Shown in pieces: positions 5,598-52,368 of a stretch of DNA of 64,000 nucleotides (position 1 is the first letter of the stretch; every line of letters starts with the position of its first letter). The notes below the pieces were generated by a model that saw only the letters and a list, made by a program, of their open reading frames with translations, was not told the origin of the DNA and searched no databases. The position numbers were made by a program, and so were the translations under genes. Source of the stretch: a virus (Duplodnaviria > Heunggongvirae > Uroviricota > Caudoviricetes); IMG/VR virus record IMGVR_UViG_3300032516_002776, positions 51,048-115,047 of that record, one strand, 5' to 3'.

Positions 5598-6036
5598 GGG
5601 ATTATTCGACCATATTAGCCATATCAGGCAGGGTAAATCACCTGATTACTTCGATAAACTTACCGACGATGAAAAGAAATCATTTAATCATTATATGATT
5701 TGTCGTGTATTAAGCATGGATAAATCTATTATTGAAGAAGTTTCTTTTATTAGCAAATATTTTAGTGTTATTGATAGTAAAAACTTTTATAAATTGTGTT
5801 GTGAAGTTGTTCCGTATAGTAAGGGATTCTTTCCTTATATAAAAAGAAAGGGAGAAAAGCTTAACAAAGAACTGCTTCAATTAATCGTCAAAAAATTCAA
5901 TGTCAGTCTGAATACTGCTACGGAATATTACTACTTATTATCCGACACCAAGCATGGCATGCATGAATTAAATGAAATTTGTAAGGGGTATGGGCATACC
6001 GAAAAAGAAATTAAGAAATTGATGGAATCCAAATGA
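5557..6036 (+). CDS. hypothetical protein
   Basis: The track start 5554 is GTG, so the adjacent ATG at 5557 is used. 159 aa. The 3' end overlaps the next start in an ATGA. Confidence 0.45.
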   Translation: MKAKTNNASTTKVKGLFDHISHIRQGKSPDYFDKLTDDEKKSFNHYMICRVLSMDKSIIEEVSFISKYFSVIDSKNFYKLCCEVVPYSKGFFPYIKRKGEKLNKELLQLIVKKFNVSLNTATEYYYLLSDTKHGMHELNEICKGYGHTEKEIKKLMESK

Positions 6037-47713: not shown

Positions 47714-47902
47714 ATGCCATATGGTCCATGTATTCTGTGCGGAGCAACTAATTACCCATCCTCCTTTGGCGGCCCGCTGATTTGTCCTTCTTGTGATTGT
47801 GGAAATCCTCCACAGCAAAAACAAGAATATTTTTCCTTGTTTCCTGAAGCGAAATCAGATAGAATAATAGAGTTATTAGAGCAAATTAAAGATAAACTAT
47901 GA
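47714..47902 (+). CDS. hypothetical Zn-ribbon protein
   Basis: CILCG...CPSCDCG. Confidence 0.35.
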   Translation: MPYGPCILCGATNYPSSFGGPLICPSCDCGNPPQQKQEYFSLFPEAKSDRIIELLEQIKDKL

Positions 47903-48858
47903 ATCATTTTGAGATAGAAGAACATGCAGAGGCAGAAAGTCAACACACTATATTTGTAGAAAAATATCGTCCATCTAAATTGGAAGATTATGTTGGAGAC
48001 AAGGTATTTAAAGCAACATTACAATCTTTTATTGATAAGAAAGACATACCACACTTATTGTTTTATAATTCAAGTCCGGGCACAGGTAAGACTGCTGCTG
48101 CAAAGATACTTGTAAAGAATATTCCTTGTGATTATTTGTATCTTAATGCATCCGATGAAAATGGAATTGAAACAGTACGAACAAAAATTAAAGGTTTTGC
48201 TTCATCTGCTGGTTTTTATCCTCTTAAAATTGTTATATTAGACGAATGTGACCAGATTACGCCAGAAGGGCAGGGGGCACTTCGTAATTTGATTGAAACA
48301 TTCTCTTTACATACAAGATTTATTTTAACTTGTAATTATATGGAGAAAATGATACCGCCGATTGTTTCAAGGTGTCAGACGCATAAAGTTGAATCACCAA
48401 CAAAGAAAGAAGTAGCATTATTAGTTAAAAGTATATTGGATAAGGAAAGTATTAAGTATACCGCAGAAGATTTAGCATACATTGTAAACACTTATTATCC
48501 TGATATGCGAAAGGTTATTAATTTTGCTCAACAAAGTGTTGTTGAAAGTCAATTGATTATTAATCGACATAATATTGTTGAAACCGACACCAAATTGAAA
48601 GTCTTGGAATTGTTAAAGACAGCAATTAGCAATCCAACAACATTTAATACAATTCGACAATTGATTGCTGATGCTGATATAAGGTTTTATGATGAATATT
48701 ATAAATTCTTATACGATAAGGTTGGAGAATTTGCGAAAGGTAAAGATGTCTTAGCAATTTTGACTATTGCTGAATATTTGTATCAATCATCGTTGGTAGT
48801 TGATAAAGAGATTACATTTATGGCTTGCATAGCAAGACTTATTAAGGAATTAAAATGA
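47899..48858 (+). CDS. gp44: clamp loader ATPase subunit, T4 gp44/RFC-like
   Basis: Walker A SPGTGKT, Walker B ILDECD, and an SRC motif (VSRCQT). Confidence 0.75.
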   Translation: MNHFEIEEHAEAESQHTIFVEKYRPSKLEDYVGDKVFKATLQSFIDKKDIPHLLFYNSSPGTGKTAAAKILVKNIPCDYLYLNASDENGIETVRTKIKGFASSAGFYPLKIVILDECDQITPEGQGALRNLIETFSLHTRFILTCNYMEKMIPPIVSRCQTHKVESPTKKEVALLVKSILDKESIKYTAEDLAYIVNTYYPDMRKVINFAQQSVVESQLIINRHNIVETDTKLKVLELLKTAISNPTTFNTIRQLIADADIRFYDEYYKFLYDKVGEFAKGKDVLAILTIAEYLYQSSLVVDKEITFMACIARLIKELK

Positions 48859-49004
48859 ATTGGAAAGAAATACAACGATTATTAGAAATTGACAACGACA
48901 AACAAACTCTATTAATAGAATTAATGACATTTGTAAAAGCAAAAGGCCTTTGGGAAGAATTTGAAAAATGCTCGACCATTAAAATTGTGAAGGAATTAAA
49001 ATGA
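48855..49004 (+). CDS. tiny ORF 1 of a 4-member array (49 aa, ends ...VKELK)
   Basis: ATGA overlap with the gp44 stop. The 15-nt motif AAGGAATTAAAATGA sits at its start and again at its end. Confidence 0.35.
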   Translation: MNWKEIQRLLEIDNDKQTLLIELMTFVKAKGLWEEFEKCSTIKIVKELK

Positions 49005-49138
49005 TAACCCGTGAAGAATTAAAAAATGTAATAGAAATTTTAACACGCCGATGCAATTTGATATGTACTGAAGACAATGCTACAGATATCATGACATATG
49101 ATGAATGGATTGATAACATATTAGGGGAATTAAAATGA
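49001..49138 (+). CDS. tiny ORF 2 (45 aa, ends ...LGELK)
   Basis: Same junction motif at both ends. It contains CNLIC. Confidence 0.35.
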   Translation: MITREELKNVIEILTRRCNLICTEDNATDIMTYDEWIDNILGELK

Positions 49139-49308
49139 TTTTTTGTTTTCATAACTGGGATTATTTTCTATATGGAAATCGGAAATGTATTAAATGCAAT
49201 AAAAACCAATATTGGAAAGCAACAGCAAACCTGTCCGGCGGATTTGTTAATGGAAAGAGAAATCCCCGACCGGCCGTTCAGAAACTTATCATGAAGGAAT
49301 TAAAATGA
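49135..49308 (+). CDS. tiny ORF 3 (57 aa, ends ...MKELK)
   Basis: A CIKCNK Zn-ribbon-like pair. Same junction motif. Confidence 0.35.
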   Translation: MIFCFHNWDYFLYGNRKCIKCNKNQYWKATANLSGGFVNGKRNPRPAVQKLIMKELK

Positions 49309-49409
49309 TTAAAGGCATTGAAAAAATAACAAAGAAAGATTTGTTCGATTTGACATTGCAATACAAGCAGTCGAAGATTATTTACGGCGGAAATAAATTA
49401 TGGCATTAA
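49305..49409 (+). CDS. tiny ORF 4 (34 aa)
   Basis: It starts in the junction motif and ends overlapping the next gene's start. Confidence 0.3.
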   Translation: MIKGIEKITKKDLFDLTLQYKQSKIIYGGNKLWH

Positions 49410-49726
49410 GCAATGTAGATCCAAATACTGGTATGGAATATGATTTCAGAGATTATTCTTCTATATCTAGTCCATATTCTTGTAATTCATGTTATTCTAC
49501 ACAATTTCATTGTGCAACGATGCCTGTAAATTATACATGTTATCCGATACCACCGAAGAAAGAAGAATTAAGTAAATTTCTTGGTAGAATGGTAATGTAT
49601 AAAAATAAGACTTGGAAATGTATTGCAACAGCAAATGGTCGAATCTCTTTAGAAAGGAAAACTTTCTTTCTCCGACGAATGAAATATGATACTGCTTCGG
49701 TCTATGAATTGAGGATATTAATATGA
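49400..49726 (+). CDS. hypothetical Cys-rich protein
   Basis: 108 aa. Confidence 0.4.
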   Translation: MALSNVDPNTGMEYDFRDYSSISSPYSCNSCYSTQFHCATMPVNYTCYPIPPKKEELSKFLGRMVMYKNKTWKCIATANGRISLERKTFFLRRMKYDTASVYELRILI

Positions 49727-50266: not shown

Positions 50267-50500
50267 ATGAAACCTATAGACTTTAAAGATAGCAATCATA
50301 AATTTGCAGAGAAGCAAAAGGAATATATAACTTTACCCGGTTATATGGATGAAAATGGGATATTTATTTCTTGTTGGAAATTAACATTTTTTGAAAGAAT
50401 AATAGTATTACTAAAAGGTAAAATATTTTTGTCCACGATGACATTTTTTAAACCACTACAACCACAAAGAATGTCTGTAAAATTTGAGGAGGAAATATGA
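50267..50500 (+). CDS. hypothetical protein
   Basis: 77 aa. Confidence 0.35.
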   Translation: MKPIDFKDSNHKFAEKQKEYITLPGYMDENGIFISCWKLTFFERIIVLLKGKIFLSTMTFFKPLQPQRMSVKFEEEI

Positions 50501-51486
50501 ATTTTAACCAAGGATTAAATTATAATAATATTGTTTTGACGCCAAATTTTTCGACATTACCGAGCAGAAGTCTTGCGGGTACATCTTTAATTTTTGGTAA
50601 TAAAGTATTTGAATTACCTATTTGTCCGGCCAATATGGTTTGTTGTATCAGCACAGAACTTGCCTATTGGTTGAGCGAGCATAATTATTTTTATGTAATG
50701 CACCGTTTTGATGGTGAAACTAATAAGAAAGATTTGCGTTGGTTCATTGAAAAGGCTAATACGGAAATGTGGCATTGTATTAGTATTAGTATTGGAGTTC
50801 AAGAAGAAGATTATGAATTATTGTGGTGGATTAATGTACGAAACCTTCGAGTGGATTTTATTACGATAGATATTTCTCATGGCCACTGTTTAAAAATGAA
50901 GGAAATGTTAGAGTTTCTTAATAAAGAAATTAAATTTAAAAATAAAACATTTGTTATAGCTGGCAATATTGGCACGCGAGAAGCGGTTAGTGATTTAGAA
51001 ATTTGGGGCGCAGACGCAACTAAAGTAGGATTAGCCTTTGGAAAAGCTTGTATAACTAAGAACAAAACGGGATTTGCTTCTCCAATGTTTTCTACTATTT
51101 TATTATGCTCTCAAAATTCTAAAAAACCCATTATCGCTGATGGTTCAATTAGTGAAAATGGGGATATAACAAAGGCATTAGTGGCTGGGGCAACAATGGT
51201 TATGGCGGGGAATATATTTGCGGCTTGTGTTGATAGTCCCGCCGAAAGTATTTATTCTGAAAATGGCAAACACATTGTTTCTAAAAAATATTTTGGTTCG
51301 GCATCTAAACGCAGTGGAAAAACTAAAAATATTGAAGGAACAGAAGTTATAATTGAATGTAATGATATGACTTACAATGAAAAATTAGAAGAAATTAAGC
51401 AAGATTTACAATCAAGCTTATCGTTTACTGGCCATAGTAATAAACTTGAAGACTTAAAAAGAGTGGAATGGAAAATTTTACAATGA
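50497..51486 (+). CDS. guaC: GMP reductase (IMPDH/GuaC family)
   Basis: It aligns along its length with E. coli GuaC: LNYNNIVLTPNFSTLPSRS against FKDVLIRPKRSTLKSRS, IDISHGH against IDVANGY, and the catalytic-Cys block GLAFGKACITKNKTGFASP against GIGPGSVCTTRVKTGVGYP. Confidence 0.7.
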   Translation: MNFNQGLNYNNIVLTPNFSTLPSRSLAGTSLIFGNKVFELPICPANMVCCISTELAYWLSEHNYFYVMHRFDGETNKKDLRWFIEKANTEMWHCISISIGVQEEDYELLWWINVRNLRVDFITIDISHGHCLKMKEMLEFLNKEIKFKNKTFVIAGNIGTREAVSDLEIWGADATKVGLAFGKACITKNKTGFASPMFSTILLCSQNSKKPIIADGSISENGDITKALVAGATMVMAGNIFAACVDSPAESIYSENGKHIVSKKYFGSASKRSGKTKNIEGTEVIIECNDMTYNEKLEEIKQDLQSSLSFTGHSNKLEDLKRVEWKILQ

Positions 51487-52025
51487 AAAACATTTTAAAC
51501 AGAAATAGAGTATACCTTGTCGGTCAAATGCAATACATCAAAGATGGTTCTGTTTGGCGTGATTATGTCGAAGCAGAATTAAAAAAGATGGGTGTAATTG
51601 TATTTAATCCATATAATCATCCATTTATCAATTCCGTGACGGAGGATAACAATGCAACGGCAACATTAAAGAGTCTTATCGCTGAAGGGAAATATGATGA
51701 ATGTGCTGAAATTATGCGAAAGATTCGTGGCGAAGATTTACGTGTCGTTGACATTGCTGATTTTATATTTTGCTATATAGACCCGCTTAAACCGACCTGT
51801 GGGGCGTGGGAAGAAGTTTTCACGGCGAATCGCGCTAAAAAGCCTATATTTTTTGTAGCCGAAGGCGGAAAGGATGTTTGTCCTCTCTGGCTTTATGGTA
51901 CAATTCCCCATAAATATATGTATAATTCCATAGATGATGCTTTGCAAATGCTTTGGGATATTAACAGCGGTGCAAAGCCTATTGATTCTTCCCGTTGGCG
52001 CATTCTCCGACCAGAATTCCTATAA
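51483..52025 (+). CDS. nucleoside 2-deoxyribosyltransferase/DNPH1-like protein
   Basis: VYLVGQM and the DIADFIFCYID...CGAWEEVFTANRAKKPIF block resemble the NDT/Rcl family (GxAWExG). The track start is 51468, and the ATG at 51483 (ATGA overlap) is preferred. Confidence 0.4.
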   Translation: MKNILNRNRVYLVGQMQYIKDGSVWRDYVEAELKKMGVIVFNPYNHPFINSVTEDNNATATLKSLIAEGKYDECAEIMRKIRGEDLRVVDIADFIFCYIDPLKPTCGAWEEVFTANRAKKPIFFVAEGGKDVCPLWLYGTIPHKYMYNSIDDALQMLWDINSGAKPIDSSRWRILRPEFL

Positions 52026-52242: not shown

Positions 52243-52368
52243 ACAATTCCACACAAATATATGTATGATTCCATTGATGATGTTTTGAATGTGCTTTGTG
52301 ATATTAATAACGGAACGCGTGAAATAGATTCTTCTAGATGGCGCCTTCTCCGAGAAGAATTTAGATAA
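52243..52368 (+). pseudogene. diverged duplicate of the 3' end of 51483..52025 (gene fragment)
   Basis: It translates to TIPHKYMYDSIDDVLNVLCDINNGTREIDSSRWRLLREEFR*. The gene tail reads TIPHKYMYNSIDDALQMLWDINSGAKPIDSSRWRILRPEFL*. The frame is closed upstream by TAA at 52216, and there is no start codon. Confidence 0.6.

Follow-up and report, generated by a model that had tools for sequence, protein, structure and literature searches.

How does one short sequence come to close several unrelated genes in succession, opening the next gene each time? The question is posed by a stretch of 64,000 nucleotides (nt) of tailed-phage DNA (Caudoviricetes; positions 51,048 to 115,047 of IMG/VR virus record IMGVR_UViG_3300032516_002776), called here the window and numbered from its first letter. 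The whole genome measures at least 205 kb, the longest contig with these proteins being 204,840 bp. Within the window, the gene for a sliding-clamp loader is followed by four tiny open reading frames (ORF1 to ORF4), strung together by near-identical 15-nt junctions (J1 to J4). With a probability of roughly 0.6, we read this array as a set of recombination scars in a plastic slot of the genome, in which the terminus of the clamp-loader gene has been reused at successive joints and caps small, partly truncated genes.

The junction repeat and its source

The window is phage-like in composition (31.7% GC) and arranged in gene blocks on the plus, the minus and again the plus strand; the array lies on the plus strand. 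A pattern search of the window finds the exact 15-mer AAGGAATTAAAATGA three times (J1, 48844-48858; J2, 48990-49004; J4, 49294-49308) and a variant with two G substitutions, GGGGAATTAAAATGA, as a fourth copy (J3, 49124-49138). All four share the 13-nt core GGAATTAAAATGA, J2 and J4 are alike over 18 nt in register, and no further match with up to one mismatch is present in the 64 kb. From start to start the copies are 146, 134 and 170 nt apart. Each ends one ORF and starts the next through an ATGA overlap: J1 joins the clamp-loader gene (47899-48858; 319 amino acids (aa), ending in IKELK and a TGA stop) to ORF1 (48855-49004; 49 aa, an ORFan ending in IVKELK), J2 joins ORF1 to ORF2 (49001-49138; 45 aa, ending in GELK), J3 joins ORF2 to ORF3 (49135-49308; 57 aa, ending in MKELK), and J4 joins ORF3 to ORF4 (49305-49409; 34 aa), which has no KELK end and overlaps by 10 nt the start of a 108-aa gene (49400-49726). 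The latter is the first gene past the array to be conserved among relatives and marks the right edge of the variable slot. Pattern search and ORF list bear out the initial annotation, which had described an array of four ORFs with a recurring 15-mer and one G-variant, [KG]ELK endings for the ORFs of 49, 45 and 57 aa, and ATGA overlaps between them; its intervals of 131-170 bp are right at the upper end and otherwise approximate.

The same annotation had pointed out that, if the 15-mer were frequent at gene junctions, it would merely be this phage's preferred way of placing a ribosome-binding site between a stop and a start. ATGA overlaps do account for 28 of the 98 junctions of the window in a simple gene chain, but the 20 nt upstream differ in all except these four. 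When all 4950 pairs of gene-start contexts are compared, the four array starts (six pairs) match one another over 13-18 nt in register; of the unrelated pairs just three come to 13-14 nt, and every other pair has 12 nt or fewer. The array motif is also the sole 11-, 12- or 13-mer with at least three copies inside 800 nt of the window, against an average of 0.13 such clusters in Markov-random sequence. Within these 64 kb, at least, the 15-mer is not a generic junction of the phage.

The source of the motif is the gene upstream. The 319-aa protein retrieves about 2700 phage records by tblastn, many of them labelled sliding-clamp loader, carries Pfam AAA and DNA_pol3_delta2 matches, and corresponds to a large subunit of the gp44/RFC type; the 246-aa protein encoded upstream of it has a weak match to DNA polymerase processivity-factor families. 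J1 consists of the last four codons of this gene and its stop (K-E-L-K-TGA). In the relatives examined (contigs designated by L numbers), the clamp loader ends in ARL[IL]KEL[KR] or a close variant of it, and the corresponding DNA reads AAGGAATTgAAATGA in L011 and AAGGAATTgAAATAA in L015, both near-identical to J1, and AAaGAATTgAAATAA in L013. Since the clamp loaders of relatives end alike, the 15-mer represents coding sequence from the ancestral 3' terminus of this gene, with J1 as the source and J2 to J4 as secondary copies. None of the relatives examined repeats its own clamp-loader end downstream.

Evidence on how a secondary copy was formed comes from relative L016. In it, TTAAAATGA precedes a 114-aa gene, and behind that gene lie three homologues of genes that also follow the array (108-aa, 77-aa and deoxyribosyltransferase-like). 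ORF2 corresponds to the first 41 or so of the 114 codons, and the DNA is 95% identical over 127 nt, as against only 59-64% for the neighbouring backbone genes of the two phages. This homology stops inside J3, where the window has ATATTAGGGGAATTAAAATGA and L016 has ATATTGTGTGAATATGGTACA; aligned at the breakpoint, the window reads ATATTA-GGGGAAT-TAAAATGA and L016 reads ATATTG-TGTGAAT-ATGGTACA. The 3' part of the 114-aa gene has left no trace in the window, and a homologue of that part is present in the corresponding slot of L014. The comparison supports the view that ORF2 is what remains of the 5' part of a gene, connected to the right part of a junction through a G.GAAT microhomology. On this reading, J3 would carry its GG variant because both variant bases fall on the truncated gene's side of the joint.

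A comparable case can be made for ORF3. Its residues 2-48, a zinc-ribbon-like core, align with the stand-alone 74-aa phage protein P0130 (exhaustive phmmer search of 1.84 billion representatives, E=3.9e-9). Past the aligned core P0130 runs on for 25 residues, whereas ORF3 turns to VQKLIMKELK and stops, its last nine or so residues lying outside the homology. Three further candidate matches, P0129, P0131 and P0132, are long repetitive proteins with short matching stretches only, and were taken as spurious. ORF1 has a single relative among 5.8 billion proteins, a strain variant, and no homologue of ORF4 was found, the protein being absent from a collection of 15 billion.

The bodies of the four ORFs are not related to one another. 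No pair shows significant similarity (Smith-Waterman against 2000 shuffles, p=0.37-0.93 over all pairs), in keeping with the initial remark that the junction is repeated and not the gene. In codon usage, ORF1 and ORF2 are gene-like (scores of 0.21 and 0.31; in-frame mean 0.30, standard deviation 0.09), and ORF3 and ORF4 are atypical (0.04 and 0.00), yet far above the off-frame value of -0.46. The 3' half of ORF3 (49210-49299) forms a patch of 43-45% GC on a background of about 30%, and this patch, together with the atypical codons of ORF3 and ORF4, may point to recently acquired foreign DNA. Gene calls on array-identical DNA of L003 to L008 vary between the 57-aa ORF3, an alternative 40-aa frame (49172-49294) and no gene at all. 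Because L003 to L007 differ from the window at 0-1 positions over their whole lengths, the same genotype recurring in several metagenomes, these differing calls are pipeline noise; with so few differences, the same contigs are uninformative on selection.

The slot behind the clamp loader and its junctions in relatives

In related phages, the genes encoding the clamp loader, a 108-aa-like, a 77-aa-like, a deoxyribosyltransferase-like (185 aa) and a 212-aa-like protein form a recurrent backbone. Their clamp loaders are 56-83% identical to that of the window, and the 108-aa gene has homologues of 101 aa in L011, 98 aa in L015 and 99 aa in L016 (59% identity). The material between the backbone genes is different in every relative, and so are the genes right behind the clamp loader: the slot between clamp loader and 108-aa gene holds the array in the window, an unrelated 180-aa gene in L011 and a 64-aa gene in L015, and in L017, L019 and L001 the clamp loader has a backbone gene as its immediate downstream neighbour. 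The comparison of homologous regions that the initial annotation had proposed finds slot content that differs in all relatives and junction copies that recur at the boundaries of small ORFs.

Two sets of such copies are informative. The clamp loader of L021 and L023 is 73% identical to that of the window and ends in AAAGAGTT[AG]AAATAA. Nonetheless, 50 nt beyond this stop codon there is an exact copy of the 15-mer, in the longer form ATTA(A)AGGAATTAAAATGA, which closes no ORF and provides the ribosome-binding site and ATG of a 54-aa slot gene. By our own base-composition estimate (0.34^11 x 0.16^4 per position), chance would place an exact 15-mer somewhere in the loci of relatives, some 85 kb once redundancy is removed, about 4 times in 10,000. 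L022, with the same clamp-loader protein as L021 and L023, is without the orphan copy. The clamp-loader gene of L014, in turn, ends in AAAGAACTTCGTTAG, and yet its slot contains AAGAAATTAAAATGA, a 14/15 copy which ends a 59-aa ORF (EKKLK at its terminus) and starts a 62-aa one. Since L021, L023 and L014 hold these copies despite the differing ends of their own clamp-loader genes, window-type termini travel with slot genes across the phage group.

Other traces of recombination surround the array. Strain contig L009 (positions 1-1331) is 40-77% identical to the window at the DNA level up to position 48411 or thereabouts and 93-100% identical from about 48412 on, ORF1 included, which marks a sharp mosaic boundary between strains inside the clamp-loader gene. 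In the same strain, a 58-nt deletion between AAAAATG microhomologies (window positions 48965-49022, approximately) takes out J2 and joins ORF1 to out-of-frame ORF2 DNA; the L009 ORF1 otherwise differs from that of the window by three non-synonymous changes and one synonymous change. Further downstream, on the plus strand, the window contains the orphan 3' end of a deoxyribosyltransferase-like gene (52246-52368; 41 codons, TIPHKYMYDSIDDVLNVLCDINNGTREIDSSRWRLLREEFR and stop) some 220 nt past the intact 185-aa copy (51468-52025). By eye, this remnant is nearer to the L011 allele, with which it shares the ending REEFR, than to the resident copy. It looks like the displaced gene end left by an allele replacement or insertion, and would be the same kind of scar as the array on a larger scale.

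In relatives, candidate agents for breaks are found beside the clamp loader. Genes whose domains are of homing-endonuclease type (NUMOD3, GIY-YIG) or unassigned (DUF723, of unknown function) adjoin it in L013 (1553-2143), L014 (2584-3714, minus strand) and L022 (2370-2555), and in L002 (676-4573) inserted ORFs break the clamp-loader gene into three matching parts. Endonuclease-induced breaks may thereby feed the plasticity of the slot.

The variable region of the window also holds a nucleotide-metabolism pair, made up of a gene of the IMP dehydrogenase/GMP reductase family (50497-51486; Pfam IMPDH, E=8e-41) and the nucleoside 2-deoxyribosyltransferase-like gene at 51468-52025. L011 and L016, the only relatives in which both flanking genes were identified, have nothing at the position of the IMPDH-family gene.

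Formation of the array and competing explanations

The layout of the junction, AAGGA-ATTAAA-ATG-A, comprises a Shine-Dalgarno (SD)-like element, a spacer of 6 nt, a start codon and the overlapping stop; in J3 the element reads GGGGA. The ATGA overlap of stop and start is found at all four array junctions and again between the 108-aa gene and a 180-aa one. Of 89 genes, 28 have an SD-like 4-mer in front of them, where random expectation is 6.5. The array contains no terminator-like site, its promoter-like sites do not exceed shuffle expectation, no Rfam family matches in or around it, and a 116-nt stretch over the 3' half of ORF3 and J4 has no significant fold (z=-1.1). Explanations based on an RNA element were accordingly set aside, given that neither an Rfam family nor a significant fold was detected. 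In L011, a bridge ORF of 20 codons noticed by eye (5960-6022; MSRRIKFQVIPKPGKIIKVI and stop) leads from the clamp-loader ATGA to the TAATG of the next, 180-aa gene, and suggests a ribosome relay over a short spacer. Because the enrichment of SD elements, the lack of a terminator, of a promoter excess and of a significant fold, and the L011 bridge ORF all fit, we infer that the 15-mer is a working stop-restart junction, for which a built-in ribosome-binding site and translational coupling, as first proposed, are plausible. A gp62-like small subunit was considered as the target of the relay and discarded, no downstream protein matching any clamp-loader small subunit and the gene next to the clamp loader varying among relatives.

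The array could then have been formed as follows. A small accessory gene behind the clamp loader would be cut and joined in frame to another clamp-loader terminus with the genes that follow it. Most likely this would happen when related genomes with different slot genes meet in one infected cell and cross over, unequally or illegitimately, at short microhomologies. In a simple scheme consistent with the observations, genome X is organised as clamp loader-J-A and genome Y as clamp loader-J-B; an exchange that links the inside of A to the very last part of the clamp-loader gene of Y would yield clamp loader-J-A'-J-B, and further rounds would pile up A', B' and later units, the oldest of them rightmost. 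Each stacked gene would inherit the same stop, ribosome-binding site and start, so that ribosomes could be passed from ORF to ORF toward the conserved downstream genes with no need of separate promoters. The joints that survive would be those where the fragment runs in frame into the junction copy, keeping the downstream hand-off of ribosomes. More speculatively, the remnants may be short owing to selection against longer clamp-loader fragments that might disturb the clamp-loader complex.

Of the two possibilities raised in the initial annotation, the evidence supports the second, in which every tiny gene has been joined in frame to one common KELK terminus; this draws on the conserved clamp-loader end, the ORF2 breakpoint and the ORF3 tail. 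The first, which saw modular cassettes connected by a fixed, splice-like linker, holds insofar as the junction marks recombination boundaries and recurs at the small-ORF boundaries of relatives. It does not hold in that nothing splice-like, no recombinase and no structured site were found, and in that at least one unit is truncated.

Several observations weigh against the scar interpretation. J3 is the only joint mapped against an outgroup, the polarity of that event is assigned by parsimony, and the 114-aa gene of L016 could itself be the recombinant. The truncation of ORF3 depends on a single homologue at 45% identity, and truncation of ORF1 and ORF4, which have no homologues beyond the ORF1 strain variant, would be conjectural. 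Right-anchored extension detects no significant similarity to the clamp loader past the 13-15-nt core at J2 to J4 (P=0.10-0.59), and because of this the equal shortness of the three remnants needs an added assumption, either selection or guidance by short homology. Longer remnants at these junctions (e.g. KLIMKELK against RLIKELK) had been entertained and were dropped when the extension scores proved not significant, which limits the claim to the 13-15-nt core. An unbroken chain of coupled ORFs would not be essential either, since strain L009 does without J2, and translation of the mini-ORFs ORF1 to ORF4 is no more than probable. Finally, our searches found no donor genome carrying the clamp loader and a junction followed by an intact ORF1, ORF3 or 114-aa gene. 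These searches had a limited reach: the 114-aa protein has no match in metagenome or viral contigs, where L016 itself was not recovered; an exact 31-mer has none in metagenome contigs, in collections that did not return L016 either; and a profile of ORF3 and P0130 has none in viral contigs, from which L016 was likewise missing. Megablast against GenBank phages returned no match.

Among the alternatives, the one that fares best is still unlikely. It takes the 15-mer for an active short-homology cassette, a translation-level analogue of the PeSL elements discussed below, such that the general recombination machinery of the phage would cut out whole ORFs, possibly in circular form, and put them back at other copies, making the region behind the clamp loader a site of gene capture. 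It accounts well for the direct repeats on both sides of ORF1, ORF2 and ORF3, for the exact or near copies at small-ORF boundaries in the slots of L021, L023 and L014, where the resident clamp-loader ends differ, and for the L016 breakpoint falling on a junction; PeSL-flanked ORFans of hyperplastic regions do behave in this way (PMC2839356). It accounts poorly for ORF2, a truncated gene and no complete cassette, and for the J3 crossover, which took place over only some 5 nt on the motif's edge and not over all 15 nt, a length that is in any case very short for homologous recombination. There is also no second array with two copies of the 15-mer at similar spacing in 2.9 million viral contigs, a set from which L016 was not recovered, and no recombinase among the Pfam families of the genes called within 6 kb. 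The two readings overlap to some extent, as existing copies of the junction may serve as crossover points in the scar model as well.

A bolder and somewhat more doubtful proposal would make the clamp-loader terminus a gene-capture site that is recombinase-free and operates at the level of translation: DNA landing in frame would be expressed at once by ribosome hand-off from a replication gene that is essential and well translated, and the copies would act as short-homology crossover points with which related phages swap, stack and prune micro-genes. If true, this would amount to integron-like or PeSL-like cassettes that use a stop-restart signal where the known systems have a promoter or attC site, as well as to a birthplace of microproteins from gene fragments.

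It is improbable that convergence or gene conversion produced the array, with independently acquired ORFs having their ends driven toward a stop-restart signal optimal for phage and host. The motif does unite an SD element, a good spacer and an ATGA overlap in a phage with enriched SD use. Nevertheless, the other 24 ATGA junctions of the window have unrelated upstream sequence, the identity of the copies extends to synonymous and spacer positions, and homology to L016 is lost abruptly at the junction and not gradually.

Less credible still is an origin in which one small gene, or the 3' end of the clamp-loader gene, was duplicated in tandem and the bodies then diverged, only the junction being conserved. 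The similar unit lengths (134-170 nt) invited it, as did a weak, sub-threshold match of ORF2 to the clamp-loader C-terminal domain family PF22227 (E=0.016) and a resemblance by eye between NATDIMTYDEW and ADADIRFYDEY. A hidden Markov model of a 120-sequence clamp-loader family, however, scores about 0 bits on every ORF, shuffle tests against the clamp loader give p=0.07-0.66, and the homologues that ORF2 and ORF3 have elsewhere differ from each other, so that decayed clamp-loader duplicates were rejected and the duplication model is largely refuted. A programmed -1 slip of tRNA-Lys on A_AAA before the UGA, extending the clamp loader by ORF1, ORF2 and so on, can likewise be given very little credence: the downstream ORF is always in the -1 frame, with an AAAA run before the stop and an SD-like element upstream, but a canonical X_XXY_YYZ heptamer is missing (with GAA TTA AAA TGA as the zero-frame codons, a P-site slip on A_AAA is the one conceivable kind), the copies have no downstream structure in common, the SD-spacer-ATG arrangement explains the same bases, and the TAA-N-ATG junctions of relatives put the next gene out of frame after a slip, yielding no fusion.

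Meaning and relation to known systems

Tiny ORFans abound in phage hyperplastic regions, and this locus appears to show the process of their formation under way. If correct, the scar interpretation offers a testable route from gene fragments to expressed microproteins, with accessory genes riding on the expression of a core replication gene. It also carries a warning for annotation: the ORFs fall below usual length cut-offs and are inconsistently called, and one of them, at the least, looks like a cut-off gene and not like an independent small gene family.

The closest parallel are the PeSLs (promoter-early stem-loops), mobile regulatory cassettes that T4-type phages carry in their hyperplastic regions (Arbiol et al. 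2010, PMC2839356; Comeau et al. 2014, PMC4122927); they combine a sigma70-like promoter with a terminator stem-loop and act at the level of transcription. Both systems place a short regulatory repeat between small ORFans, in a plastic region beside core replication genes and with no dedicated recombinase, and here too the copies coincide with boundaries of indels or replacements (the L016 break in J3, the copies in L021 and L014). The repeat of the window differs in being only 13-15 nt long, in forming part of the coding sequence of the upstream gene, in acting, as we infer, on translation, and in delimiting at least one truncated unit. No complete promoter-like match lies within any repeat copy, and the 13-18-nt junction repeat contains no inverted repeat that could stand for the stem-loop.

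Integron arrays likewise consist of unrelated small ORFs in one orientation, with a repeated site between them and upstream expression signals. Here, in contrast, the repeat measures 15 nt and lies inside the reading frames, and there is no structured site of the attC type (about 60-140 bp): only the 13-18-nt direct repeat is present, with no inverted repeat attached to it, and no integrase (IntI) figures among the Pfam families of the genes called within 6 kb.

Two further comparisons concern the gene end itself. Adjacent phage genes can be coupled through an ATGA stop and start, as in the clamp-loader genes 44 and 62 of T4. In both phages the stop of the clamp-loader large subunit overlaps the next start and the ribosome-binding site lies inside the upstream coding sequence; in the window, however, the partners are unrelated tiny ORFs, the junction is duplicated several times over and no gp62 homologue was identified. 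Contact-dependent inhibition (CDI) and Rhs loci accumulate displaced, orphan 3' modules downstream of polymorphic toxin genes. There, as proposed for the array, serial recombination at a conserved short coding motif stacks fragments beside the main gene, with the difference that the motif sits at the 5' edge of displaced C-terminal modules, which are functional toxin/immunity pairs, and not at the 3' end of 5' fragments of unrelated small genes.

A general framework is the Hendrix/Hatfull model, in which illegitimate recombination makes the mosaic joints of phage genomes and selection retains those at gene boundaries. The window agrees with it in that homology to a related phage breaks off at a short microhomology and neighbouring segments have diverged very differently (95% against about 60% identity). 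What sets the window apart is that the last 13-15 nt of one gene are reused at successive joints, giving rise to an array of direct repeats and to chimeric ORFs that remain in frame. The locus is a variant of known phage mosaicism, and its unusual part is the reuse of one gene end at several successive joints.

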